Assembly: GCA_047639455.1 (NCBI GenBank)
Contig: JBLINS010000001.1
Coordinates: 179-64,178, forward strand
Source: Candidatus Omnitrophota bacterium
Lineage (GTDB): Bacteria > Omnitrophota > Gorgyraeia > 2-02-FULL-51-18 > JAGOUK01
Direction of reading: 5' to 3'
DNA length: 64,000 bases
Shown: piece after piece, positions 35,466 through 61,880 of the stretch
Position numbering within the stretch: position 1 is the stretch's first letter
How the letters are laid out: every line of letters begins with the position of its first letter
Notes under the pieces: generated by a model
What the model was told of the DNA's origin: nothing
Seen by the model: only the letters and a program-made list of their open reading frames with translations
The model's database searches: none
Position numbers and translations under genes: made by a program

Positions 35466-35921
35466 ATGAAGTGTCCATTTTGCGCATGTTTAAAAGATAA
35501 AGTCATTGATTCTAGATCTGCTAACGAAAATCGTTCGGTTAGGCGCAGACGTGAGTGCCTCAAATGTCATAAACGCTTCACGACTTATGAATCTATCGAA
35601 GAAATTTCAATTATGGTCGTTAAGCGTGATGGTCGCAGAGAAGTTTTTGATAAACAAAAAATTATTGGCGGTATCTTAAAATCTTGCGAAAAGCGCGCCG
35701 TTAGCATCCAACAGGTAGATGAATTAGTTGATCGTGTTGAGCGTGAATTACACGAAAACTTTGAAAAAGAAGTGCCTGTACAACAAGTTGGCGAATTGGT
35801 CATGCGTTTTTTACATGATTTGGACGAAGTTGCATATGTGCGCTTTGCCTCAGTTTACCGCTCCTTCAAGGATATTAATCAATTCATGGGTGAACTAAAA
35901 GACCTATTGAGTAAACCCTAG
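35466..35921 (+). CDS. nrdR: transcriptional repressor NrdR
   Basis: N-terminal CPFC...C..C zinc ribbon plus an ATP-cone. Confidence 0.9.
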   Translation: MKCPFCACLKDKVIDSRSANENRSVRRRRECLKCHKRFTTYESIEEISIMVVKRDGRREVFDKQKIIGGILKSCEKRAVSIQQVDELVDRVERELHENFEKEVPVQQVGELVMRFLHDLDEVAYVRFASVYRSFKDINQFMGELKDLLSKP

Positions 35922-35949: not shown

Positions 35950-37560
35950 GTGAGCTTCAAAATAAGCAAGCATTCCATTGCACCATCAAACAGTTCGTCC
36001 TGGACTGTTTTAGACACAGTGCTTTCAGGATTACTTTTCGCACTAGCACTTTATTTGTATTTTGTTCAATTGAATAGCCCTATGGTTTGGGAGTCTGATG
36101 AAACCAAGGCCTATTTAAACTTCTTTCCTCCTACACCTGGCCTATATATGTTTTCTAGAGACGCTATTATTCTCTTCAAGTCGTTCACGGCACCATATTA
36201 TGTGAATGCTTTTTTTGGTTTATTTAGCTCAATGCTTATTTTTGGCATCGTACGCATGTTGTATTCACATAGGTTCGCTATGCTAGTTGCATTGGCTTAT
36301 ATTACTTTAGACCTACCCTTGGCATATGCCCGCATCCTTTTCTATTCGACTCTGGTTACCTTTTTTGCATTATTGGCTATTTGGTTATTTTTAAAAGCCG
36401 AGAAACTGAATAAGCCATGGCTGTATATTCTGGCAGGATTTTGTCAGGGCATGATGCTGATGATGCATCCATCAGCTTATGCAAGTGTTTTAGGTGTTGG
36501 GTTGGGGCTAATGTTTTTAAAATTCAGTCATAACCCCTATGAGTCAACCAATGCTTGGTGGCTGTACCCTATATTAGCTTTTTTAGGTTTTGTTGCAGCG
36601 ATACTTTTGGTTGACCATTGTTTTTTTATGCCCATAGACTCAATGAATCGGTCGTATTTTGTACATATGGGCTATCATCAACAAAATTCTTCTACAGAAC
36701 TTTATGCGGGGGCCATGGGTTGGAATGCTATCAAACATGCTTATAGCGCCTTAATTAATTCAGAATTAAGATCCCCTGAACGACTCATTCGGCATGCCAT
36801 TGTGTATATTGGCATTTTGTCTTCCATATCGTTCGCATGGCGTTCTAAGGATAAAAAGGCACTAGGCTTGATGCTTATATCAATCGCCACACTCGTGATT
36901 ATATTCACGGCGGGATTATTTAATAAGCACACGGTTTTTTTGCGACACTATACAGTCATTGCAATGAGTATTAGCTTTTGTATTGCCTATTCTTTGGCGG
37001 GCTTATTTTCTTCGCGAAGAAATGGTTTGAAAATAGCCGCAGTAATTCTGGCTTTGGTGTATTTTACAATGAGCGGCATAAGTTCTTATAAAATTGCACA
37101 TTCACTACTAAGTTTGGACGATATAGACTCTTATTTGCATGAGCAAAATATTGAAAAAAAAGATATAGTGACTGCTTTTTATACCATCAACCGCCTCCAC
37201 AATTACTTAGAGGGTAGTATATCGACACATACGCCGACAATTAAAAAAGGGCATAATAGCCCACCTGATTGGGAGAAGATTTTTTATTCATATTTGACTG
37301 GGCAACACCATTATTATATTTCATCTGGAATTGGCGGGGAACATATTCGACCCGCTTTAAAGGACGTGATCATAAAATACACCGAACCGCTTCAAACATG
37401 GCGCCATCCTCACGATAACCCTTATTTAACTCGGCAGTCTAAGGATGGGCTAACTATGAGCCTATATCGCATAGAAGATCTGTTGGCAACGTATAAACGT
37501 TTAAAAGTGGCGCTCGATATTCAACAATCCCGATCTATTGCAGGTAAAAATGTTAAATAG
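35950..37560 (+). CDS. GT-C fold membrane glycosyltransferase-like protein (PMT/ArnT-like), paralog 1
   Basis: 536 aa, about 11-13 TM. A DE motif in the first extracytoplasmic loop (WESDETKAY). A C-terminal soluble domain with W(R/K)HPHD(N/T)PY that is shared with the next gene. Confidence 0.55.
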   Translation: MSFKISKHSIAPSNSSSWTVLDTVLSGLLFALALYLYFVQLNSPMVWESDETKAYLNFFPPTPGLYMFSRDAIILFKSFTAPYYVNAFFGLFSSMLIFGIVRMLYSHRFAMLVALAYITLDLPLAYARILFYSTLVTFFALLAIWLFLKAEKLNKPWLYILAGFCQGMMLMMHPSAYASVLGVGLGLMFLKFSHNPYESTNAWWLYPILAFLGFVAAILLVDHCFFMPIDSMNRSYFVHMGYHQQNSSTELYAGAMGWNAIKHAYSALINSELRSPERLIRHAIVYIGILSSISFAWRSKDKKALGLMLISIATLVIIFTAGLFNKHTVFLRHYTVIAMSISFCIAYSLAGLFSSRRNGLKIAAVILALVYFTMSGISSYKIAHSLLSLDDIDSYLHEQNIEKKDIVTAFYTINRLHNYLEGSISTHTPTIKKGHNSPPDWEKIFYSYLTGQHHYYISSGIGGEHIRPALKDVIIKYTEPLQTWRHPHDNPYLTRQSKDGLTMSLYRIEDLLATYKRLKVALDIQQSRSIAGKNVK

Positions 37561-39115
37561 GCAAAATTCCCAAATCTTTGCATTGCGTGTTTGTATATGC
37601 ATCGGATTGATGTGCATGCTCTACTTTAATTTTTACAAATTATCCGGCGTAGTGATAACGCATTCAGATGAGAATAGAGCTTTTCACTTTCAATTATTTG
37701 CACCCCTAATTTATTTTGTCAACAAGCCCTTGATTACATATTTTAATAGTTTTGATGCAGCTTATTATCTTCAGGGTTTTGTGGGCTGCATGAATATTAT
37801 TTTGATTTATGGCGTTGGGCGCAGATACTTTTCGAAGGCCATAGGGCTAATAACTGCATCTTTTTATCTTTTTTATGATTATCAATTAGCTTTTGTCAAA
37901 ATGCTATATTACTCAAATTATATGGTTTTTCTTTGTTTAATCAGCATCTTACTATGCAGAATTGCATTGAATCGAAGATCTTATGTAATAAGCTTCTTAG
38001 CCGGCACACCATTAGCGCTGATGTTTTTTTCTCATCCAGCGGCTTTTGCGCCCATTAGTATGTTGTTTATTTTTATGATTTTGGCTATATACGTCGAGAG
38101 GGATGAGATAGGTTTTAGAGGGATTTGGTTATTGAGCTTATTTGGCTTAGGTGCTTTGAGCGCCTTGGTTAGTCTCGAAGCCTTGAATCTATATTACCAA
38201 ACGTATATTTTAAAAGTGGACGCAATGCCGTATCTTTTAGATATATTTCAATTCAAAACTATCACTCAAGGATTCGAGTCAAAGAACTCAACCCAACAAA
38301 TTATACAATTTGCTAATACCTATGGACGCGCGCTATTTTGGACCTCAGCGTTGGTGACTTTTAGAAATACAATGATTCTATTTTGCTTTGTATTTGCGCT
38401 TGTATCTGCCATATGCAGACGCCAAAGAAATATGTTACTTTTCCTAAGTCTTGCGTTGTCGGGCATTACTGTTTGGATTATGGCTATGTATTTATTAGAC
38501 ATGCCTATATTTAGGAGATCCTTGGTCTGGATGTCTATACCAATATCTTTCTCATTCGCATATACAGTGCAGCGCTTGTGGTGTCTGGGGATAAAAGCGC
38601 TTAAATTGGCCATGCTGATTATTCTAGCGATTTATTTCATGTCAGCCGCATGGCAATGTCATTTGATCACACAAGAATTATGGACCATGCAACCTATAGA
38701 GAAATATTTGGATCAGCGCGGAATTAGTAAAAAGGATATAGTTTCAGATTTTCCGCTATTCAGAAGACAGGATATTACTAATAAAAATATTCCACGTGGA
38801 GTTCCTAAAAAGACTACTACGGTTCAATTGAATGGGGCGGATGAATTAAAATATCATTTGGATTGGCAAAAAATATACGCCATGTATAAATATGGCATGA
38901 TTAGTCATTATTTATCTACTAGCCTTGGGGCTTTGCTTGATTTTTACCATGATGATCCATTATTGAATCGTGTTGAACCTATGATGGAGTGGAAGCATCC
39001 ACATGATACTCCATATATCAATATGCTGGGGCGTCCAGGACAAAAGATAAAGCTATATGACTTAGATGAAGTATTCGCTCCCGTGAATGCTCTAGCAGAT
39101 AAAAAAGCTCAATAA
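37538..39115 (+). CDS. GT-C fold membrane glycosyltransferase-like protein, paralog 2
   Basis: 525 aa. DEN in the first loop. The C-terminal domain is clearly homologous to paralog 1 (HYLS.S.G...W.HPHD.PY). Overlaps paralog 1 by 23 nt. Confidence 0.55.
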   Translation: MQVKMLNRQNSQIFALRVCICIGLMCMLYFNFYKLSGVVITHSDENRAFHFQLFAPLIYFVNKPLITYFNSFDAAYYLQGFVGCMNIILIYGVGRRYFSKAIGLITASFYLFYDYQLAFVKMLYYSNYMVFLCLISILLCRIALNRRSYVISFLAGTPLALMFFSHPAAFAPISMLFIFMILAIYVERDEIGFRGIWLLSLFGLGALSALVSLEALNLYYQTYILKVDAMPYLLDIFQFKTITQGFESKNSTQQIIQFANTYGRALFWTSALVTFRNTMILFCFVFALVSAICRRQRNMLLFLSLALSGITVWIMAMYLLDMPIFRRSLVWMSIPISFSFAYTVQRLWCLGIKALKLAMLIILAIYFMSAAWQCHLITQELWTMQPIEKYLDQRGISKKDIVSDFPLFRRQDITNKNIPRGVPKKTTTVQLNGADELKYHLDWQKIYAMYKYGMISHYLSTSLGALLDFYHDDPLLNRVEPMMEWKHPHDTPYINMLGRPGQKIKLYDLDEVFAPVNALADKKAQ

Positions 39116-39460
39116 GAGTCTGTGCCCGCATAATCGATATGCCCTCCACAATCTGATTGTTGAAACTAATTTTGTGAACGCAGCTCCTACAGAAATGGCG
39201 TGAACATCAATCTATTAAACAACACGCCATCTCAGTGCGAGCTGTCTTAATCACAAAATACGTCAACAATCAAAATTGTTCCGGATATACCGATTATGCG
39301 GACACTAATTATCAATGTACTAAAACTCCTCAAAAAATATAATTAATGGAAAATAAAATTAAGACAAAAGGATGCGCCTATAGGCAGCGGGTATCCTCAC
39401 CGCCGCAAAGTCTAAAAGCGGTTAACCCATTAAGAGTTTAGGCTGTTTAAAACCTGGCGG
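39116..39460. repeat. composite structured repeat element, copy 1 (candidate ncRNA / non-autonomous element)
   Basis: A long imperfect hairpin of about 180 nt (39124-39300; arms caatctgattgttga / tcaacaatcaaaattg; inner stems cagctc/gagctg and ggcgtg/cacgcc). Then a gcgcctataggcagcgggtatcc module and an aaaaccTGGCggtttt hairpin. A second copy lies at 61965-62400. Confidence 0.6.
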
Positions 39461-39625
39461 TTTTAAAGACGCAGCTTAGACAAGGAATCCTGAAAACCTG
39501 GCGGTTTTAAAGACGCAGCTTAGACAAGGAATCCTGAAAACCTGGCGGTTTTAAAGACGCAGGCTATAACAAGGAATCCTGAAAACCGGGCGGTTTTAAA
39601 GGCACGGGTTTGAAACAGATTACGA
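39457..39625. repeat. 44-bp tandem direct repeat x about 3.5
   Basis: Unit gaaaacctggcggttttaaagacgcagcttagacaaggaatcct. Each unit contains the small hairpin AAAACC-tggc-GGTTTT. Confidence 0.85.
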
Positions 39626-39639
39626 AAACCCTTGTTCGC

Positions 39640-39705
39640 CACAGTCATCCTGAGCCACCACGTAGTAGGTGGCGTGAGGATCCCACAGAATGTCTTTAGA
39701 CTATG
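39640..39705. repeat. MITE/REP-like dispersed repeat, family A copy (inverted orientation)
   Basis: gtcatcctgagccaccacgtagtaggtggcgtgaggatcccacagaatg is the reverse complement of the cattctg..gatcctcacg...caggatgac consensus. Confidence 0.7.
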
Positions 39706-39836
39706 TTTTTGACAACTTTTTGCATGTTTGAAAGCGGTTAACCCATTAAGAGTTTAGGCTGTTTAAAACCTCGCGGTGTTAATGACGCAGGCTTTATAAA
39801 ATGGAATTCTAAAAACTTGTAGTTGAAGCTGTGAAT

Positions 39837-48082: not shown

Positions 48083-48922
48083 CTAAACTTCGAATGTTTC
48101 TGGGTCTAGGGTCTCGGTGACCTTCATTTCAGACTCAAGTATTGATCCATCTGGATTGTAGGTGATCTTAATCCGCATAGTTGCTTTAGACCAATCCGTT
48201 TCTCCATCTGCAAGTTTGAGCCAAGTTTCGACGTATGTGCCGTCGGGTGCCGTGCTCACGAGCACTAATTCCATACCATCCAAAACAGGCTTTTCGGTCG
48301 ATGTGGTCGTGGTTGTGGCGGAAACCGATTCAATTATGTTCGTTTCAGCTGATGATATGATGAGAATATAGTCATAATTATATTCGGAGTCAGCTGGTGG
48401 ATTGAAATAAGTATTTAACTTTCCATCACTACTTAAGAATTGATTTTTTAATTCCCAGGTCGACAAATCAATTGTTTGTATTTCGGGCTCTACGACAACG
48501 TCAGCCCGCTCCCTCTGTTTTAGAGAGTGATATCGATTTTCAGATTTATGATAGGTTGTTTTTGGGTCGCCATGATAGAGCTTGGCTTCGACTGTATTGA
48601 GATGAGTCTTTTTTATAGGCGTATAGTTAATCGATTTAAATCTGTTACTGCTTATATCATTGAATACATTTTGGCCTAATCGCCGGAGTGATTCGATAAT
48701 CGATTTTGAATTGGCTTTAACTTTAGCCTTATTGCCCAAAGCCGTATTTCTGTCCGATATTTGTTTGATTTTTTTATACTTTTGTAATTGCTTGGGGGTA
48801 TGAATGGGCATTACATTATTTTTATTCTGAACATGCCCTTTGGGACCAGCTATACTTGGACAGGCGATGATTAATGTGCTCAATGTGAAGATTATTGCTG
48901 TGAGTGTTGAGATACGTTTCAC
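48083..48922 (-). CDS. secreted hypothetical protein with a Thr-rich segment
   Basis: Signal peptide. SATTTTTSTEKP stretch. No recognisable domain. Confidence 0.45.
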   Translation of the reverse strand: MKRISTLTAIIFTLSTLIIACPSIAGPKGHVQNKNNVMPIHTPKQLQKYKKIKQISDRNTALGNKAKVKANSKSIIESLRRLGQNVFNDISSNRFKSINYTPIKKTHLNTVEAKLYHGDPKTTYHKSENRYHSLKQRERADVVVEPEIQTIDLSTWELKNQFLSSDGKLNTYFNPPADSEYNYDYILIISSAETNIIESVSATTTTTSTEKPVLDGMELVLVSTAPDGTYVETWLKLADGETDWSKATMRIKITYNPDGSILESEMKVTETLDPETFEV

Positions 48923-49222
48923 TTTACACCTCTTTTCTATTGGTAGCCTGGCTGACCTTCCTTCATTGTAAGGGGAGGTTCCATGGTTTTGCGTCCCATG
49001 TTTTCACATGGTTTGCCAGCATATAAATGCTTTTGCTACCCCTGTTAGGGGTTTTTTCTTTAAAAGAGCTTTGAGAGCACCCATATTGTGCCCTAATAAG
49101 AGTATAGGCGACAAAATAGGAGAATTCAAGGCAACTAATCTAAATATAACCTAAATTAAATCTAAATATTGACTATTATTAAGCAATTCTAAGCAGTGGC
49201 AACTACAGGTGTTGTTTCGGCT

Positions 49223-49831
49223 CTAGACATTGGCTATTGTGGCTGAGGGTGCGTCTGGGTGCACGGTGTCATCAGCTTCAATGACAAGTGCATTAGAAAC
49301 ATCAAAAGATAATCTAAAAGTTGCGGGGCCCAAGTCTGAGTTGATGGTGAAGGTGTTGGTGGTATCCAAAATTGTGATTGTGCCATCACCAACACTAAGT
49401 GTGAAGCCAGCCGGAAAGCCTGTATCACTAGTGATGGTGAAGGCTTGTTCCTCAGACACGCAAGCCCCACCCGTAGTCGGAGTGCCATCATCATCTGTAC
49501 AAAATTGGGTACCCGTATTAACGCCAGCATCCTGTGTAATAGCACCCTGTAATGTGAAGCTATTAGAGATCGTGGCACGAATATTTGTGTAGGTGCCATC
49601 AGGCAAGTCTACATTGCCCACATATTGTGCTGCAGCTATGCCAGAGCTAACGGAGGCAATATCAATCACAGCATCATTTTCAGCAAGGGTGATGAAAATT
49701 GATCCATCTGTCGAAACTTCAATTTTTTTCATGGTTATTTTGTAAACGGTGGGATCGGCCGTAGCTGCTAAAGCTGTATATGAATACAAACTCATAAAAA
49801 TGAGTGTTAGGCAAAAAAGACCATATTTCAT
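49223..49831 (-). CDS. secreted Thr/Gly-rich beta-rich protein (possibly SCPU/DUF4402-like)
   Basis: Signal peptide. Composition and periodicity suggest a beta-sandwich. GC is locally higher than in the surroundings. 4-nt overlap with the upstream gene. Confidence 0.45.
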   Translation of the reverse strand: MKYGLFCLTLIFMSLYSYTALAATADPTVYKITMKKIEVSTDGSIFITLAENDAVIDIASVSSGIAAAQYVGNVDLPDGTYTNIRATISNSFTLQGAITQDAGVNTGTQFCTDDDGTPTTGGACVSEEQAFTITSDTGFPAGFTLSVGDGTITILDTTNTFTINSDLGPATFRLSFDVSNALVIEADDTVHPDAPSATIANV

Positions 49832-50760
49832 ACTCGCCCAACCTCAAAGCTGATCCCACTGGACTTAGCAACTCCAAAACGCTCTGTGTGAATTCTATTA
49901 TTACGCTCAACTCGTATAAGCGATTTGTCGCGGGGATCATTATTGGAAAAAGCACGCTCTGATAGGTTTAGTGGTTTGAACGCATCTTGATCAAGGTGGA
50001 GTTCGAATGTTATATCAACACCCCATTCAATGTCTTCGATTTTGTTATTGTCTTTAATATATAGATTAATAATTGTATTTTTTAAAGGTTGAATTTCTAT
50101 TCGGCTCGTCCAGCCATATAGATTATCTTCAGCAATTTTATAATCATAAATTTCACCACCACCAAAAATCTTGATCCAAGGCACATGGGGTATAGGCATG
50201 CCAAATTCAAAGTCAAAACCATTAACCGCCTTTTCATAAAGCACGCTGAGTTCAGTTTCTTCAATGCGCCGTCTTGGGCTGAGGCGTATATAGCTATTCA
50301 TGCGGATGTCGTAATTGGATCCCAAAACCTCTGACCCAAAACCAATTCTCGCATGCCCTGGATCGCGCTGATAGTCACCAAAGACATTGAATCCTATTAA
50401 TGCGTTTAATGATTCAATATACCGTCTATAACCTGTGCCAATATTGTAGACATCATCATCAGTTCCATTGTAGCTAACTCTGGATTGTAAAAAGAGAGTT
50501 TGATTGCGCAATTCATCTTGTTGCAATGCATAAACGGATTGTAGGTAGAATTGAGGTTTTAAGCTTTCTTCAAAGCTTAAGCCATAGTCTATTTGACCTA
50601 GAGGACCACTAATTTTTTTAGGCAGAGGATTTAGAATCCATGTCGCAGCTTGTGTTAGATTTGATTGTATGTCTTGGGTAGTAATATCATTCACCTCAGC
50701 CGCATAAGTAGATGCAGAAAAAATGAAGATAGAGATTAACGCAATTAATTGTTTGGCCAT
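49828..50760 (-). CDS. putative outer-membrane beta-barrel protein
   Basis: Signal peptide. Alternating amphipathic strands and frequent Y/G/N/D turns. Loose resemblance to MipA/OmpV or inverse-autotransporter beta domains. Confidence 0.45.
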   Translation of the reverse strand: MAKQLIALISIFIFSASTYAAEVNDITTQDIQSNLTQAATWILNPLPKKISGPLGQIDYGLSFEESLKPQFYLQSVYALQQDELRNQTLFLQSRVSYNGTDDDVYNIGTGYRRYIESLNALIGFNVFGDYQRDPGHARIGFGSEVLGSNYDIRMNSYIRLSPRRRIEETELSVLYEKAVNGFDFEFGMPIPHVPWIKIFGGGEIYDYKIAEDNLYGWTSRIEIQPLKNTIINLYIKDNNKIEDIEWGVDITFELHLDQDAFKPLNLSERAFSNNDPRDKSLIRVERNNRIHTERFGVAKSSGISFEVGRV

Positions 50761-50822
50761 GACTTACGTTAATTATAACAGTAAATAACTGATACCGCAT
50801 TTTAAAGTAGTAGAATGTTCAA

Positions 50823-52094
50823 ATGCATAATCGAATGAATATGAATTTGGTTTATTTAGCTATTATTCCGTTATTGGGGTTAATGGGGATGCTATGGGTT
50901 GTGGGTCCGTATCAATTGGGTTTGACTGAGGACTCATTGCGTTATATGTCTATAGCTGAGCATGTTGCCGCGGGGAAGGGTGTAGCGATATTTAATCGCA
51001 CGACGGGTGGAGTGTCGATGCCTGTTGTGAACTTTCAGCCATTTTTCTCGCACCTATTAGCGGTGTTTAGATTATGCGGAGTGGGCTTACAGGCGGGCTC
51101 CTTGTACTTAGTGTCAGGTATATTTTTTGCTAATCTATTTATGGCGGGTTTACTTGTTTTATTAGCTACGCGGAGTTTGGGGGCGGGGTTTGTGATTCAA
51201 ATCATGCTCTTATTGGATAGACGTATATTCATGCACCATATTTATGTTTTGACTGAGTCTTTATTTGTGCTTTGGATTCAGATAAGTGTTTTTTGCATAT
51301 GGAAATACTTTAAGCATGCGTCTAAGAAGTGGTTGTTTTTGACCTACTTGGCCTTAATTTGTATGAGTTTTACGCGTTATGCGGCTACTAGTTATGTCTT
51401 TGGCTTTGGCTTATGTTTATTATTGTGGGACAAAAATAACTTCGGGACCCGCTGTAAAAAGATCATCCTTGGTACGGGCTTAGCTTTATTGCCACTAGGC
51501 GTTTGGTTTGGACAGCATTTTTTAAAAACGGGCAAAGCTTTTGAAAGAGGTGTTGGCGGCACACATGATATGAGCCAATTCGAGCCTTTGTCTGTGGCGC
51601 AAAGTGTTTTTAAGAATGTATGCAATTACGTTATTGAAATTGGCTGGCTACCAGCCTGGCCGGCAACTACCTATATTGCAGGGATTGTCTTATTAGGAGT
51701 TGGCTGCTTACTCATGATTAAAAGGTTTAAGCATCGCGACAATCCTATTTCTATTGAAGAAATCTTATACTTATTAACCGCTAATTACATTGTTTTTCTA
51801 ATCATGCTCTGGTCGTGGAGGCATGTCACATTCATGCCAGACCCTTATCGCTTTTTGATGCCTGCTTATTATTCCATATGGATAATACTCCTAATCGTGA
51901 TTTGGAATATAACCCAAAAATGGCCTATTATTTATCGTGGCGCATTGTTAATGCTTTTATTAGCCTGCTTAAGCCCCCAAGTGCCAAATACCATTGAATG
52001 GGCGCAAGCGGGCCACAAAACCGGCCTCTACGGAATGCCCGGCCAATTCTCCTGGCGCTTCGCCAACAGCCTCACCTGGCTCCCTCCACAATAG
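50823..52094 (+). CDS. polytopic membrane protein, GT-C glycosyltransferase-like (third copy)
   Basis: 423 aa, about 11 TM. The first loop LTEDSLRYMSIAEHV resembles the DExRYAEI motif of ArnT/PMT-type enzymes. Confidence 0.4.
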   Translation: MHNRMNMNLVYLAIIPLLGLMGMLWVVGPYQLGLTEDSLRYMSIAEHVAAGKGVAIFNRTTGGVSMPVVNFQPFFSHLLAVFRLCGVGLQAGSLYLVSGIFFANLFMAGLLVLLATRSLGAGFVIQIMLLLDRRIFMHHIYVLTESLFVLWIQISVFCIWKYFKHASKKWLFLTYLALICMSFTRYAATSYVFGFGLCLLLWDKNNFGTRCKKIILGTGLALLPLGVWFGQHFLKTGKAFERGVGGTHDMSQFEPLSVAQSVFKNVCNYVIEIGWLPAWPATTYIAGIVLLGVGCLLMIKRFKHRDNPISIEEILYLLTANYIVFLIMLWSWRHVTFMPDPYRFLMPAYYSIWIILLIVIWNITQKWPIIYRGALLMLLLACLSPQVPNTIEWAQAGHKTGLYGMPGQFSWRFANSLTWLPPQ

Positions 52095-55296: not shown

Positions 55297-55374
55297 TTTT
55301 TAAGCATTAAAATAGTTCTTTAATAAATTAAATATATTTTGGCACCTAGCTTATTTGTATTCGTTGATAAGTGA

Positions 55375-55550
55375 GGTTTAATGAGGGAATTGGGTGAGAA
55401 TCCCAGACGGTCCCGCCACGGTAAGGTTATTACAACCAAGTCCGAATACCACCAAAATATGAAGTGATCATGATTCACGCAAGATGAGCATGATTGTAGT
55501 CGAGACCAAGATTAACGGGTATGCTCTCCAGAGCATACCCGTTTTTTTGT
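55375..55550 (+). promoter_or_regulatory. cobalamin (B12) riboswitch with terminator expression platform
   Basis: GGGAAuuGGGUGagAAUCCC ... CCCGCCACgGUAA ... AAGUCCGAAUACC core. Followed by the hairpin AACGGGTATGCTCTCCAGAGCATACCCGTT plus T7, upstream of a TonB-dependent receptor. Confidence 0.75.
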
Positions 55551-55573
55551 ATGGAAAAAGTGAGTGTTACATA

Positions 55574-57598
55574 ATGAAAAAAAGAAAAAGAATTATAGTT
55601 GGTGTGCTAATCGGGCAATTATTTTGTGCCCATATTTTGAGAGCAGAAATGACTTTTGAACCATCGAAAGTGGTTGTGGATGAGCGAGTTGATAAGGTGA
55701 TCGTTACAGGCACACGCATTGCCAATTATGCTTATGAATTGACTGGGGACATGACTGTGATAGATGCTGAACAAATTTCGGCATCTGGAGCTCATAGCGT
55801 AGCCGATGTATTGGAGCAAGTCGCCGGAGTGAATGTTTACGATCGGAGCACGCCTAAGACGTCCATTGTCGATATACGTGGGTTTGGAGATGCATCTGTG
55901 AGCAATGTCCTCATTCTTGTGAATGATCGGAAGCTCAATTCAGTTGATTTGTCAGGGCCAGACCTGATTCAAATACCCATAGAAGCTGTTGAGCGCATAG
56001 AAATACTTAGAGGGGCTGGTAGTGTTTTGTATGGTGACAATGCTGTTGCTGGCGTTATCAATATCATCACCAAAAAAGGTTCTGGAGATTTGGCTATTGA
56101 ATGGACAAATCAATACGGTAGTTATGATCGCTACAAATCCTCAGGTCAAATTTCGGGTCAAGTAGATGCATTGGGGTATTATGCCTATATGAGTTATGAC
56201 GATTACAAGGGTTATAGAGATCGAAGTGATGTATTGGCACGAAATTTTAATTCACGATTCACCTATGAATGGGGTGATCGCGTTGACGTTGATATTGAAA
56301 TAGGCGGACATAATGATTCAACTAAATTACCTGGTGGTTTAGATGAAGCTGAACTTGTAGGGTTTGGGCGAAGGGGTGCCGCCGATACTAACTTCTCCAA
56401 AACCGAAGACTTTTTTACGCGTTTAGGCGTGGATATAGCTATAGGCCCTGAAGCTGGGCAATGGGGTAGTTTTGTTTTTGATTTGACTTATAAGGATAGG
56501 GATGTTCTCGATTCGTTCTTTGGCACATTTAATTCTAATCGAACTATAAAGCAATGGGGTTTATTGTCTAAGTATGTGTTTGATCACGAATTATTTGGTA
56601 AGGATATAGATTTTGTATTAGGTTTTGATTTATATGATACGGATAATGATATCCTTGGCAGTGGCACAAATTCAGACGATATCACGATATCCAAAAGTGA
56701 AATCGGCTTTTATGGATTCCTAGAATTCGAAACATTAGATAATTTGTATTTGAATTTGGGATCGCGCTATCAAGAAGCAGAGTATGACTTTGATGATAGA
56801 GGTAGCTCTGAATTCACATCCCAAAACCCGGATGAATGGTCCTCACTTGTAGGGATGAAGTATATGTTGGCGCCAGGATCGAATATTTTCCTTAACTATC
56901 AGAAGACCTTTAGGTTTTTGGCAACGGATGAATGGTATAGCACTTTTTCGGGGCTTAATACGACACTCAAACAACAAACAGGTGAACAGTTTGAATTTGG
57001 GATTAAGTACAGTCTTAATGAATGGGCTGAAGGTAGTGTCACGCCCTATCGTATGGATATCACGGATGAAATCTATTTTGATCCGAGCACATTTGTGAAT
57101 GATAATTACGAACAGACTCGTCGTGATGGAATAGAATACGCGCTTAATTTGAATCTATTAGAATTCATAGATTCTAAATCTGTGAATAAGTTAGACTTGC
57201 GTTTAGCCTATGCCTATCAAGATCCTGAGTTTAGAGGTGGGGTGAGTGACGGTAATGTTATTCCATTAGTGCCCAAACATTTATTTACGCAACAAATTGT
57301 GCTTAAATGCTGGGACAACTTCCTATTCTCATTACAAGGACGTCATGTGGGTGATAGGGTGATAGGAAATGATTTGGATAATAATAAGGCTAAGGCAAGG
57401 GATTATTATATTGCTGATGCACGTTTTGCCTATCAACAAAAGAATGTGGAGATATTCATTGAATTAAATAATCTCTTTGATACCAAGTATAATACTTATG
57501 AGATTGAGAAAACTGTAATCGCGAATACAGGCATCACACGTGACGTTTATCCAGCTGAAGAGTTTAATATGAACTTTGGAGTCAAGGTTAAGTTTTAG
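55574..57598 (+). CDS. btuB: TonB-dependent outer-membrane receptor (BtuB-like, B12 uptake)
   Basis: Signal peptide, TonB box DKVIVTGTR, plug plus a 22-strand barrel, and a C-terminal Phe. Riboswitch-controlled. The ORF-track start 55484 lies inside the riboswitch. Confidence 0.8.
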   Translation: MKKRKRIIVGVLIGQLFCAHILRAEMTFEPSKVVVDERVDKVIVTGTRIANYAYELTGDMTVIDAEQISASGAHSVADVLEQVAGVNVYDRSTPKTSIVDIRGFGDASVSNVLILVNDRKLNSVDLSGPDLIQIPIEAVERIEILRGAGSVLYGDNAVAGVINIITKKGSGDLAIEWTNQYGSYDRYKSSGQISGQVDALGYYAYMSYDDYKGYRDRSDVLARNFNSRFTYEWGDRVDVDIEIGGHNDSTKLPGGLDEAELVGFGRRGAADTNFSKTEDFFTRLGVDIAIGPEAGQWGSFVFDLTYKDRDVLDSFFGTFNSNRTIKQWGLLSKYVFDHELFGKDIDFVLGFDLYDTDNDILGSGTNSDDITISKSEIGFYGFLEFETLDNLYLNLGSRYQEAEYDFDDRGSSEFTSQNPDEWSSLVGMKYMLAPGSNIFLNYQKTFRFLATDEWYSTFSGLNTTLKQQTGEQFEFGIKYSLNEWAEGSVTPYRMDITDEIYFDPSTFVNDNYEQTRRDGIEYALNLNLLEFIDSKSVNKLDLRLAYAYQDPEFRGGVSDGNVIPLVPKHLFTQQIVLKCWDNFLFSLQGRHVGDRVIGNDLDNNKAKARDYYIADARFAYQQKNVEIFIELNNLFDTKYNTYEIEKTVIANTGITRDVYPAEEFNMNFGVKVKF

Positions 57599-58202: not shown

Positions 58203-61200
58203 TTAGTACGCGAGGTTGGGTCGGAGCCATTTTTCGGCTTGGGGGATGGTCATGCCTTTGCGTTTGGCATAATCTTCGACTTGGTCTTTTTGGATTCGGC
58301 CTAGGCTAAAATAAACGCTTTCGGGATGGGCAAAGTATAGACCGCTAACTGATGCACCTGGAAACATGGCGGTGCTTTCGGTTAATTTGATCTGAACCTG
58401 TTCTTCTATGTGGCATAGGTCCCACATATGATTTTTTTCGGTGTGATCGGGGCAAGCTGGATATCCGGGTGCTGGACGTATGCCGCGATATTTGCAAGAA
58501 ATGAGTTCTTCATTACTCAAACTTTCATTCGGACTAAAACCCCAGAATTCATTGCGCACGCGCTCATGCATATGTTCAGCTAAGGCTTCGGCCAAACGAT
58601 CTGCAATTGCTTTGACCATAATGCTGCGATAGTCATCATGCTCGGCATCGTATTGAGCCGCTAAAGCTTCCGCTCCCATGCCAGCAGTCACAGCAAAGAC
58701 ACCAATGTAATCTTTGACACCAGAATCTTTAGGTGCAATAAAATCAGCTTGGGCTAAATAAGGTTTGGCATTAGTTTTGAGCGCTTGCTGTCTAAGTGAA
58801 TGTAAGGTGCTAATCACTTCTTGTCTAGTGTCGTCAGCATAAATTTCTATGTCATCACCAATGCTATTGGCTGGGTATAAACCAATAATAGCATTGGCTT
58901 GAAGCTGTTTTTTGGCAATGATTTCTTTGAGCATGGTCTTAGCATCATTGAATAATTTGGTCGCCTCTACACCGAGTTTAGGATCGGTGAGGATATTGGG
59001 GTATTTAGCTTTCATTTCCCAAGTGAGGAAGAAAGGTGACCAGTCAATTCGCTGGGTTAAGGCTTCCAAGTCATAATCAATGAATGTTTTGGTGCCTAAA
59101 AAAGACGGCTTGGTGATGGATACTTTGGACCAATCAGATTGCATGCCTTTTTGTCGCGCATTTTGAATAGATTCATAAGGAATTTTGCCTGAGCGACTAG
59201 CATGTAAGTCTCTTAATTCTTGGTATTGCAAATGAATGTCTTTGATTAGGTCTGCTTTTTTGACCGGATCCATGAGTTGGCTACACACGCCCACACTTCG
59301 TGAAGCATCTTTAACATGAATGGTGATGTCACGCGTGTATGTTGGTTGAATTTTGACAGCTGTGTGATTTCGGGATGTGGTAGCCCCTCCGATTAAGAGG
59401 GGGACATTAAAGCCTTGGCGCTCCATTTCCGAAGCCACCGTAACCATTTCATCTAAAGACGGCGTGATGAGGCCACTTAAGCCAATAATATCAGCATTAT
59501 GTTCTTTGGCGGCTTTGAGTATTTTGTCATATGACACCATGACACCCAAATCAATGATCTTAAAATTATTACAAGCCAAGACCACGCCCACAATATTTTT
59601 GCCTATATCATGCACATCACCCTTAACCGTGGCCATGATGATGACGCCCGCACCCTTGTTATCACCTTTAGCTTTGCCGGCTTCAATGAAGGGGTTGAGA
59701 TAGGCCACAGCCTTTTTCATGACTCTGGCACTCTTAACGACTTGAGGTAAGAACATCTTGCCATCACCGAATAAGTCTCCAACCACATTCATGCCATCCA
59801 TTAAGGGGCCTTCAATCACATCGATTGGGCGCGTAGCACTTTGACGCGCTTCTTCTGTATCGGCTTCAATATATTCAGTGATGCCTTTGACTAGGGCATG
59901 CTCTAAGCGTTTATTGGCACTTTGTTCACGCCAGCTTAAGTCATCCACTATTTTTTTGCCTTCGGACTTATAACTTTCGGCAAAGTCGATTAATGCTTCG
60001 GTGGCATTGGGATTGCGATTGAGAATCACATCTTCGACTTTGACTAATAAATCGGGTGGTATTTGGTCATAGACTTCAATCATGCCAGCATTAACTATGC
60101 CCATATCCAAACCAGCTTTAATAGCATAGTAGAGGAAAACAGAATGCATAGCCTCGCGTAGAGGGTTATTGCCTCTAAAAGAAAAGGATACATTGCTCAC
60201 ACCACCGCTAATACGCGCATAGGGGAGATTAGCTTTGACGAATTTGCAGGCTTCAATAAAGTCGACAGCATAATTATTGTGTTCCTCTATACCTGTGGCT
60301 ACGGCAAAGATATTGAGGTCAAAAATAATGTCTTGAGGCGGGAAGTGAACTTCTTTAGTCAAAATATCATAGGCGCGTTGGCAAATGGCTTGGCGTTTTT
60401 TTAAGTTATCCGCTTGACCGTTTTCGTCAAAGGCCATGACTACAGCCGCGGCACCATAGCGGCGCAGAAGTATGGCGTGTTTTTTAAAAATTTCTTCACC
60501 TTCTTTGAGGCTAATTGAATTGACAACCGACTTGCCTTGGCAACATTGGAGTCCCGCCTCAATCACATCCCATTTGGACGAATCAATCATTATAGGCACG
60601 CGTGCAATATCAGGCTCAGACGCGATTAAGTTTAAGAATTGAACCATAATGGCCTTGGAGTCCAACATAGCCTCGTCCATATTAATATCAATGACTTGGG
60701 CGCCTGCATCGACTTGTTGTCGGGCAACAGTTAAGGCCTCATCTAATAGACCCTCTTTAATTAGACGCGCAAACTTGAGTGAACCGGTGATATTGGTGCG
60801 TTCGCCTATATTCACGAATATAGAATCTTCTTTAATACGCAAAGGCTCCAAGCCACTTAAGGTTGTGTGAATAGGCTTATCAGTTACTTGTCTGGGCGGC
60901 AGGCCTTTGGCAGCTTGAACCATGGCCGCAATATGGCCAGGCGTTGTGCCGCAGCATCCGCCTAAGATATTAATAAAGCCACTATCGGCAAAGTCTTTGA
61001 CGAGTGCCGCCATTTGATCGGGCGTTTGATCATATTCTGCGAATTCATTGGGCAACCCTGCATTGGGATAACAACTAATATGACAATCCGCCAATTTGGA
61101 TAATTCAGAAATATAAGGGCGCATTTCCTCAGCGCCTAAAGCGCAATTCAAACCTATAGACAAAGGCTTGGCATGTTGTAGAGATAACCAAAAGGCTTCT

Positions 61201-61880
61201 GTAGTTTGACCTGAAAGAGTGCGACCACTTGCGTCAGTGATTGTTCCAGAAATCATAACCGGTAGATAATTCTGAGTGTCCGCAGCATATTGGTCAATAG
61301 CAAAAAGGGCGGCCTTTGCATTCAAAGTATCAAATATGGTTTCGACTAAGAGTAAGTCAGAACCACCATCTACAAGACCTTTGATTTGTTCCGTGTATAC
61401 CTCTACTAATTGTTGAAAGGTGACGGCTCGATTGCCTGGGTCATTCACATCTTGCGACATGGAGGCCGTTCGATTAGTGGGCCCTATAGCTCCAGCAACA
61501 AAGCGCGGTGACTTGGGATCTCTAGCTTGCATGGCATCACAAGCGGCGCGGGCGATTTTGGCAGATTCAAAATTAAGTTCATAGACGATTGTTTGCATAG
61601 CATAATCAGCCATACTTATGGCATTAGCGCTAAAGGTATTGGTTTCGACTATATCTGACCCTGATTCCAGATATTCCATGTGAATACTTTGGATAATGTC
61701 GGGTTGGGTTAGGGACAATAAGTCATTATTGCCTTTAAGGTCTTGAGTGTAGTCCTTAAAGCGCTCACCACGATATTCAGCTTCACCGAGTTTGTGGCGC
61801 TGAATCATAGTGCCCATAGCGCCATCTAAGAATACAATTCGTTCTTTGAGTAGTTTATATATAGGATGATTAGAATTCAT
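58203..61880 (-). CDS. metH: cobalamin-dependent methionine synthase
   Basis: 1225 aa with Hcy-binding, pterin-binding, B12-binding (DxHxxG ... GG) and AdoMet activation domains in MetH order. Confidence 0.9.

Follow-up and report, generated by a model that had tools for sequence, protein, structure and literature searches.

Tandem paralogous genes for predicted GT-C-fold membrane glycosyltransferases behind nrdR in a Candidatus Omnitrophota bacterium

The tandem gene pair

The window analysed here is a 64-kb stretch of DNA (64,000 nucleotides) from a Candidatus Omnitrophota bacterium. Two adjacent, co-oriented open reading frames described in a sequence-only reading of this DNA were both recovered on its + strand, with lengths of 536 and 525 aa. 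Gene A (35950..37560) begins with GTG and encodes a predicted GT-C-fold membrane glycosyltransferase of 536 aa, listed publicly as hypothetical protein ACI9CF_000182 of a Candidatus Omnitrophota MAG. Gene B, its paralogue, starts either at an ATG (37550..39115, 521 aa), as in the public entry MFT5206443.1, or at an upstream TTG (37538-39115, 525 aa). BLASTP aligned the two products with 24% identity across 524 columns (E=8e-44), and the family HMM scored B at 463.8 bits, so that the paralogy suggested for the tandem pair extends over the full length of both proteins. Because an AGG precedes the ATG at 37550, with no such site before the TTG at 37538, and because the public annotation also starts at the ATG, an overlap of 11 nt between A and B is more likely than the 23 nt given previously.

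The spacing of 28 nt behind nrdR was reproduced exactly, from the nrdR stop at 35921 to the start of A at 35950, and nrdR may be co-transcribed with A and B. Promoter and terminator scans around nrdR-A-B remained at background level (24 vs 27.2 expected and 7 vs 8.2 expected, respectively). A functional tie of the pair to glyA-nrdR was not borne out, since linkage to nrdR occurs at no related locus. The region at 36-38 kb displayed a GC content of 0.374 and an AT skew of -0.146. Horizontal transfer was considered on account of these values and rejected: at -0.137, the AT skew around the other GT-C gene of the window is much the same, and the codon content usual for membrane proteins offers a simpler explanation.

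Family, fold and conserved residues

A and B belong to an uncharacterised GT-C subfamily of roughly 57 clusters, confined so far to Omnitrophota according to the source names of six members, and are new members of a well-known fold. Motif and conservation counts given below refer to 50 aligned members. The Pfam model PMT_2 (PF13231) scored 21 bits for A and 18 bits for B against a gathering score of 26.1, and matched 43/50 family members at E<=0.01, with a best value of 3.5e-13. No NCBIfam model matched A or B, and searches of PDB sequences with A and with B singly gave nothing useful; a word-indexed homology search with A returned A itself only, and with the family profile as query it retrieved generic PMT_2 proteins only. 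A pattern scan of GTDB genomes produced pattern matches, among which no relatives were confirmed.

A structure model was generated by AF2 from the 50-sequence alignment; a two-sequence alignment gave a pLDDT of 37.7 and was not used. The model contains 11 TM helices, with the N-terminus inside and a C-terminal domain of ~150 aa in the periplasm. It can be observed that the polytopic TM core carries a long first extracytoplasmic loop bearing juxtamembrane helices, as expected of the GT-C fold, and the positive-inside count places this loop in the periplasm. Foldseek returned AglB as the best match (E 1.6e-6), and oligosaccharyltransferase matches ranged from E 1.6e-6 to 1e-5, with TM-scores of 0.42-0.47 and in no case above 0.49. 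Family-level Pfam matches, fold searches, topology count and motif invariance agree with the earlier proposal of GT-C-type membrane glycosyltransferase paralogues, and the model supports A and B as probable inner-membrane glycosyltransferases of GT-C fold. Placement in a non-glycosyltransferase family with no conserved Asp/Glu had been named beforehand as the outcome that would speak against this assignment; the folds matched were those of GT-C enzymes, and the Asp and Glu were present in 50/50 members.

The DE motif noticed in the first extracytoplasmic loop of both proteins was confirmed. In A, the codons of D50-E51-T52-K53, putative catalytic and donor-binding residues, lie at 36097..36108 (+ strand), where the first periplasmic loop begins. 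The corresponding codons of B, D44-E45-N46-R47 in the numbering from TTG 37538, lie at 37667..37678 (+ strand), as located by alignments and a regex count. The Asp-Glu pair is invariant (50/50), and the fourth position is R in 48/50 members and K in 2/50; the motif continues as D-E-T-K-A-Y in A and as D-E-N-R-A-F in B. Apart from D50/E51, no acidic column is conserved at >=70% among the 50 members. Conserved basic residues facing the periplasm comprise R/K53, R128, R332, and H327/H333 in the numbering of A.

The C-terminal periplasmic alpha/beta domain of A, delimited by model secondary structure, topology and conserved columns, comprises about residues 385-536 (37102..37557, + strand) and conserves P429, W441, Y455, S459-G460, P480, W484-x-H486-P487, and Y506. 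Alignment with A and the family columns place the equivalent domain of B at about residues 380-525 (38675..39112, + strand), with W485-K-H487-P488. The longer motif W(R/K)HPHD(N/T)PY reported earlier occurs in A (484-492) and in B (485-493); family-wide only W-x-H-P is kept, in 45/50 members. The domain of A gave no Pfam and no PDB sequence match, and among the best 150 matches of an exhaustive search the C-terminal region was matched only by family-type proteins and short fragments.

Regarding donor synthesis, the absence of an undecaprenyl-phosphate sugar synthase next to the pair can be extended to the entire 64-kb window, in which no ArnC-like GT2 was found, either in Pfam searches of all ORFs >=150 aa or with four GT2 queries in tblastn, which gave only noise at E>=0.94; no other donor-synthesis or glycan genes were found there. 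At related loci, ArnC/AglJ/PpgS-like GT2 genes adjoin relatives at L003 and at L006/L007 and resemble monosaccharide-phosphate synthases, and heptose, GT9 or amino-sugar genes are often present. About half of the related loci (the window, L001, L005, L011, and L012) have no informative glycan neighbours. The ArnC/AglJ-type synthases and the heptose, GT9 and amino-sugar genes point to a polyprenyl-P-monosaccharide as the probable donor. As acceptor, for which the earlier proposal allowed either protein or lipid/glycan, the evidence somewhat favours a glycolipid or glycan of the envelope, possibly LPS; the neighbours fit protein or polysaccharide glycosylation equally as well as LPS modification. 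Two neighbours at L005 (519 and 539 aa) were considered as further paralogues and rejected by the family HMM, the first having only a weak PMT_2 match.

Comparison with known GT-C families and alternative explanations

The A/B family is a GT-C lineage separate from ArnT, PMT, and OST, since YFEKP (ArnT), WWD (OST) and the MIR domain (PMT) are all missing, and it likewise lies outside the ALG families. ArnT has 13 helices, compared with 11 in the A/B model. The resemblance to ArnT (GT83) lies in D31-E32-T33-R34 of the E. coli enzyme, which occupies the same position after TM1 as D-E-x-[R/K] in the A/B family; HMM alignment of this segment gave -3 bits, so the correspondence is positional and not statistically significant. 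In hhalign, the family aligned with the single sequence of E. coli ArnT over 78 columns only, in the TM3-TM5 core (E 0.032). The first periplasmic loop of ArnT carries the motifs RYA and YFEKP (PMC5377068). In the A/B family, YFEKP occurred in 0/50 members, also when the pattern was relaxed, and RYA occurred in 5/50 members, not including A or B, most members having R-A-[F/Y]. Furthermore, no curated NCBIfam ArnT model was matched, and no arn genes lie nearby in the window. ALG12 and ALG9 (GT22), which are eukaryotic ER Dol-P-Man mannosyltransferases, have no soluble C-terminal domain comparable to that of A and B; identity to them is 11-14%, and PF03901 matched none of the 50 members.

The DE motif in loop 1 is common to PMT (GT39) and the A/B family, and A and B could on this account be regarded as PMT/TMTC-like protein O-glycosyltransferases that pass sugar from polyprenyl phosphate to Ser/Thr residues in proteins of the outer membrane or in secreted ones, such as the Thr-rich products encoded at 48083-49831. 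This is unlikely. Sequence identity to PMT is 10-14%, and neither a MIR domain nor a PF02366 match was found in A, B or the 50 members, which carry instead a C-terminal periplasmic domain of their own; the TM7-TM8 loop of the model has only about 50 residues and no Pfam match. The candidate substrates, which lie on the opposite strand about 10 kb from A/B, adjoin a different GT-C gene. This third gene (50823-52094), about 12 kb from the pair, passes Pfam PMT (PF02366) with 25.8 bits vs a cut-off of 22.7, and its product falls outside the A/B family. Next to it, the product of 49223-49831 contains 15.3% Thr and that of 48083-48922 contains 10.8% Thr with a TTTTTST run. Both have hydrophobic N-termini that resemble signal peptides by eye. 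The earlier description of a third GT-C-like gene beside secreted Thr-rich proteins thus stands as regards the PF02366 match and the Thr content, the proteins being putatively secreted. Union of this gene and the Thr-rich proteins with A/B into one system is not supported, given the different GT-C family, the lack of any link found and an association that is not conserved. Moreover, LPS-core and amino-sugar genes are commoner at related loci than obvious protein substrates.

A further alternative is that the two proteins form a heterodimer in which B is catalytically impaired, as in Pmt1-Pmt2 or EmbA-EmbB, or that both are non-catalytic scaffolds like PIG-U. B is changed at two well-conserved His columns (H327->M, H333->S), and its activity may be altered or reduced because these columns are lost. 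However, B retains D-E-x-R, K121 (R128 column), R327 (R332 column), and W-x-H-P, and the invariant DE speaks against a purely structural role. At their loci, relatives mostly occur as one copy. Apart from A/B, a tandem pair is found only at L006/L007 (47% identity), which is a recent, independent duplication, so tandem duplication arose at least twice and a two-subunit architecture is not a trait of the family. Impaired or scaffolding partners are accordingly regarded as distinctly improbable.

Oligosaccharyltransferases of the AglB/PglB/STT3 type (GT66), which would transfer a preassembled glycan as one block from polyprenyl diphosphate, share with A and B the order of a TM core followed by an extracytoplasmic C-terminal domain with a conserved Trp-containing motif. 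AglB, the best structural match, was also the sole sequence-profile match in the PDB (E 0.0044). Despite this, WWD/WWDYG occurs in 0/50 members, the family motif being W-x-H-P, and no second acidic DxD/ExD motif exists among columns conserved at >=70%. PglB and AglB are longer than A and B by about 200-350 residues, the TM-scores are modest in value as given above, and the linked GT2s at related loci look like synthases of monosaccharide phosphates. Such an activity is therefore very improbable. Finally, a non-glycosyltransferase polytopic envelope protein (O-antigen or repeat-unit polymerase, flippase, or DUF2142-like) is in accordance with A and B alone falling below every curated family threshold, but is effectively refuted by the PMT_2 matches across the family and by the GT-C fold matches.

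Proposed mechanism and significance

The reading that we prefer, at a probability of roughly 0.55, is that A and B are periplasm-facing GT-C transferases of a polyprenyl-phosphate sugar onto an envelope glycoconjugate. Paralogy, fold, topology and motif conservation are established here, and the donor-synthase partner is seen in relatives only. During the first step, a GT2 of ArnC/GtrB/AglJ type, presumably encoded elsewhere in the genome, would load a single sugar on polyprenyl phosphate at the cytoplasmic face. Subsequently, the lipid-linked sugar would be flipped and, in the third step, transferred by A and B at the periplasmic membrane surface, where the Asp-Glu pair may activate or position the acceptor and R/K53, R128, R332, and H327/H333 may hold the donor phosphate. 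During the fourth step, the aromatic-rich C-terminal domain with W-x-H-P would bind the acceptor, most probably an envelope glycoconjugate, of which LPS lipid A/core and other lipid-linked glycans are examples. A and B may differ in the acceptor site or in the sugar. A tandem arrangement of GT-C paralogues is common to A/B and to EmbC-EmbA-EmbB, Rhizobium RgtA/RgtB, and Streptococcus PgfM1/PgfM2, which are adjacent paralogous GT-C genes using polyprenyl-phosphate sugar donors. In these sets, the paralogues act on a single envelope glycoconjugate but at different positions, and an ArnC-/GtrB-like GT2 makes the donor.

Bacteria commonly encode PMT_2-like GT-C proteins that are uncharacterised, and A and B represent fairly ordinary GT-C members with no new mechanistic category. 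It is tentatively suggested, as possible rather than probable, that the Omnitrophota family constitutes a new CAZy-level GT-C family, that the W-x-H-P domain is a previously unseen acceptor-recognition module, and that A and B attach two different sugars to, or act at two positions of, an envelope glycoconjugate specific to Omnitrophota, for example as lipid A/core decoration. If the preferred reading is correct, a well-delimited and structurally confident subfamily would be added to the GT-C superfamily, with a diagnostic signature of D-E-x-R after TM1, the periplasm-facing R128/R332/H327/H333, and W-x-H-P in the C-terminal domain, and hypothetical proteins of Omnitrophota MAGs would gain a usable annotation. 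The phylum Omnitrophota comprises ultra-small cells that are possibly attached to hosts. Envelope glycan modification would then stand out as a trait that was duplicated repeatedly in uncultured Omnitrophota and is, for that reason, probably diversifying.

Fold, topology and conservation of the paralogous pair

The tandem genes A (35950-37560, + strand, GTG start, 536 aa) and B (37538-39115, + strand, co-oriented with A, TTG start, 525 aa) align end to end in BLASTP with 24% identity over 524 columns (E=8e-44), so that the paralogy reported for these two open reading frames by the sequence-only reading lies far beyond chance. The reported overlap also exists, its length being more likely 11 nt than the proposed 23 nt, since the public annotation of B (MFT5206443.1, 521 aa) begins at the ATG at 37550, which is preceded by AGG, while the TTG at 37538 has no such site. 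A is listed in a Candidatus Omnitrophota MAG as 'hypothetical protein ACI9CF_000182'. Searched singly, A and B scored 21 and 18 bits against Pfam PMT_2, both below the cut-off of 26.1, and neither NCBIfam models nor PDB sequence searches gave a match to either protein. An exhaustive HMMER search of 1.84 billion cluster representatives with an A+B profile returned 195 matches with E<=1e-3, of which 56 reached E<=1e-10. Approximately 57 matches span the full length (~500 residues); beyond these, the weaker ones are confined to profile positions ~60-220, which represent the generic core of PMT_2. The six members for which a source is named all come from Omnitrophota/Omnitrophica MAGs, and two of these proteins are labelled 'glycosyltransferase family 39 protein'. 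In an alignment of 50 members, with a mean identity to A of ~20%, D50, E51, P429 and W441 (numbering of A) are invariant, and R/K53, G163, R332, I401, Y455, G460, P480, W484, P487 and Y506 nearly so. PMT_2 is matched by 43 of the 50 members (best E 3.5e-13).

The AlphaFold2 model of A built on this alignment reached a pLDDT of 90.9 and a pTM of 0.91; the model from a two-sequence alignment was useless (pLDDT 37.7). A Foldseek search of the former against the PDB, a check suggested by the sequence-only reading, gave 28 matches at E<=1e-3, all of them GT-C enzymes (AglB, PglB, STT3, Pmt4, ALG9/12, EmbC/EmbA-EmbB and ArnT), with identities of 10-14% and TM-scores of 0.42-0.57, among which no one family stands out. 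The agreement of the fold searches establishes a GT-C fold for the modelled protein. Eleven transmembrane helices are predicted (20-38, 81-104, 107-128, 132-153, 157-172, 174-193, 205-226, 276-298, 302-323, 337-353 and 358-383); loop 1 itself contains two short helices, and the chain from about residue 385 onward forms an alpha/beta domain. With these boundaries, the K+R density per residue across the family is 0.276 in predicted cytoplasmic loops versus 0.094 in short periplasmic loops, which supports an N-in, C-out orientation, so that all conserved polar residues would face the periplasm. These are D50-E51-x-R/K53 at the start of loop 1, R128 between TM3 and TM4, H327, R332 and H333 between TM9 and TM10, and the aromatic-rich C-terminal domain (W441, Y455, W484-x-H486-P487 and Y506). 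In the model, the Asp-Glu pair, present in 50 of 50 members, thus faces the periplasm with conserved basic residues nearby, and the soluble C-terminal domain is periplasmic as well. The latter has no match in Pfam or among PDB sequences and, among the best 150 of the 195 HMMER matches, is confined to proteins of the family type and to short fragments. B carries Met and Ser at the well-conserved columns H327 and H333, respectively, so an altered specificity, or a role as partner to A, may be conceived for it. Fold, topology and motif conservation together support the earlier GT-C interpretation, and the probability that A and B are GT-C glycosyltransferases is put at roughly 0.9.

Relation to known GT-C groups

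Directly after TM1, E. coli ArnT carries LLWQPDETRYAEI, so the D-E-x-R of the family occupies the same position as that of ArnT. The loop-1 signatures of ArnT are RYA and YFEKP (PMC5377068); in the family, YFEKP occurs in 0/50, and most members have R-A-[F/Y] in place of RYA. The OST motif WWD is likewise found in 0/50, no second conserved acidic motif of the OST type exists in the family columns, and both the MIR domain and PF02366 of PMT are missing. Judged by these missing signatures, the family is a GT-C lineage of its own, the putative function of which is most like that of the monosaccharide-transferring ArnT, PMT and ALG type.

Genomic surroundings in the window

Upstream of A lies an unbroken + strand string (purB...purE, LMW phosphatase, rpiB, glyA, nrdR) with gaps of at most 12 nt or small overlaps, and the nrdR stop is separated from the A start by the 28 nt noted earlier. 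Promoter- and terminator-type signal scans around A and B were at background level, hence co-transcription with nrdR is suggested by spacing only. Since nrdR, glyA, rpiB and the PpiD-like gene are found in 0/10 related loci, the adjacency to nrdR is lineage-specific and probably incidental, and a functional tie to glyA-nrdR is not supported. No ArnC-like synthase had been seen beside A and B; Pfam searches of all ORFs >=150 aa and tblastn with four GT2 queries detected no GT2 or other glycan gene anywhere in the 64-kb window.

Downstream of B, a 720-nt non-coding spacer precedes a convergent SurA/PpiD-like gene. The spacer (39116-39836) is rich in repeats, among them a tandem array (44 nt, 3.5-4 copies, 39436-39632; unit AAAACCTGGCGGTTTTAAAGACGCAGCTTAGACAAGGAATCCTG) in which each unit has a small AAAACC/GGTTTT hairpin. 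A 65-nt direct repeat (39410-39474 / 39726-39790, 92%) lies on either side of the array, and an inverted repeat of 31 nt is present as well (39122-39152 / 39275-39305). The array unit was not found elsewhere in the window, and there was no match to an Rfam family.

The third GT-C-like gene (50823-52094, 423 aa), which had been joined to A and B in one system, is GT-C-like by Pfam PMT (PF02366, 25.8 versus a cut-off of 22.7 bits) and has an E-D pair after TM1 (GLTEDSLRY). It is rejected as a family member: the family HMM does not match it, and it has a 36-residue tail after the last hydrophobic segment in place of the C-terminal domain. A tRNA-Gln gene follows downstream. Beside it, on the - strand, the region 48083-50760 encodes a passenger-less inverse-autotransporter beta-domain protein (310 aa) and a Thr-rich DUF4382 protein (15.3% Thr). 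Both lie upstream of a 279-aa protein that is likewise rich in Thr, has no Pfam match, and has an N-terminus that resembles a signal peptide when judged by eye. A c-di-GMP-I riboswitch (48939-49027, - strand, 64 bits) lies directly upstream of this last gene, and the region is possibly a surface or adhesion module under c-di-GMP control. Neither the third GT-C-like gene nor these neighbours show any link to A and B.

In both GT-C gene regions, 36001-38000 (0.374) and 50001-52000 (0.389), GC content is lower than in flanking stretches, with strongly negative AT skew (-0.146 and -0.137), most simply because of T-rich codons for hydrophobic residues, which need not mean foreign origin. Elsewhere, the region 55323-57598 holds a TonB-dependent receptor gene immediately preceded by a cobalamin riboswitch (52.8 bits), a standard BtuB-like arrangement, with a MetH-like 1225-aa ORF nearby on the opposite strand (58203-61880). 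The tmRNA gene (612-1037, - strand) has an unusually long predicted tag peptide, AKTTSVNSFQVPAFRLPVMSPMAI, the end of which is not the common ...LAA.

Related loci and putative function

Outside the window, an hldD-hldE-gmhA-type ADP-heptose operon lies divergently to the family member in L003 and L009, and L003 also encodes a GT2 of 312 aa which shares 34.6% identity with E. coli ArnC over the full length and, like ArnC, has two hydrophobic helices at the C-terminus. Immediately behind the pair of tandem family members in L006/L007 comes a GT2 of 347 aa, which among NCBIfam models best matches polyprenyl-phosphate sugar synthases (AglJ, PpgS, ArnC, PgfS and Dol-P-hexose transferase). In L002, the surroundings of the family member comprise a GT9-family gene, B12-radical-SAM genes and genes for a further PMT_2 protein and a GT2; in L008, the genes immediately upstream are of the DegT, WbqC and acetyl/methyltransferase types. 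L010 offers no more than a distant gene of the Kdo-transferase family and an adjoining radical-SAM gene; L001, L005, L011 and L012 have no informative glycan genes. B12-binding radical-SAM genes are common neighbours (L002, L003, L006). Furthermore, a module recurs close to the family genes of three Omnitrophota loci (L002 13387-17000, L003 1-3525, L009 878-4818), comprising a membrane protein of 583-593 aa (matched by PMT_2 at 36.7 bits in L002 and by no Pfam model in L003 and L009), two small proteins of ~172-187 aa with no Pfam matches, and a radical-SAM enzyme. In a distance tree, the L006 pair are sisters (47% identity), whereas A and B (24%) are not clean sisters, which indicates that tandem duplication arose independently at least twice and does not represent a fixed two-subunit design.

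GT-C chemistry and the GT2 genes linked in relatives suggest that an ArnC/GtrB-type GT2 elsewhere in the genome would make a polyprenyl-phosphate monosaccharide, which would be flipped and then used at the periplasmic face by A and B; a monosaccharide-phosphate donor is considered fairly probable. The acceptor would be an envelope glycoconjugate, the foremost but tentative candidate being LPS lipid A/core or another lipid-linked glycan, as suggested by the ArnT-like D-E-x-R and by the gene neighbourhoods of roughly half the related loci. A protein acceptor appears unlikely. The two paralogues may differ in acceptor site or in sugar.

The family adds a new, lineage-restricted member to an enzyme class that is very large and well known, and automatic annotation has already placed some relatives in GT39. 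Its significance would be greater if the C-terminal domain turned out to be a novel acceptor module, or the target an unusual surface structure of Omnitrophota.
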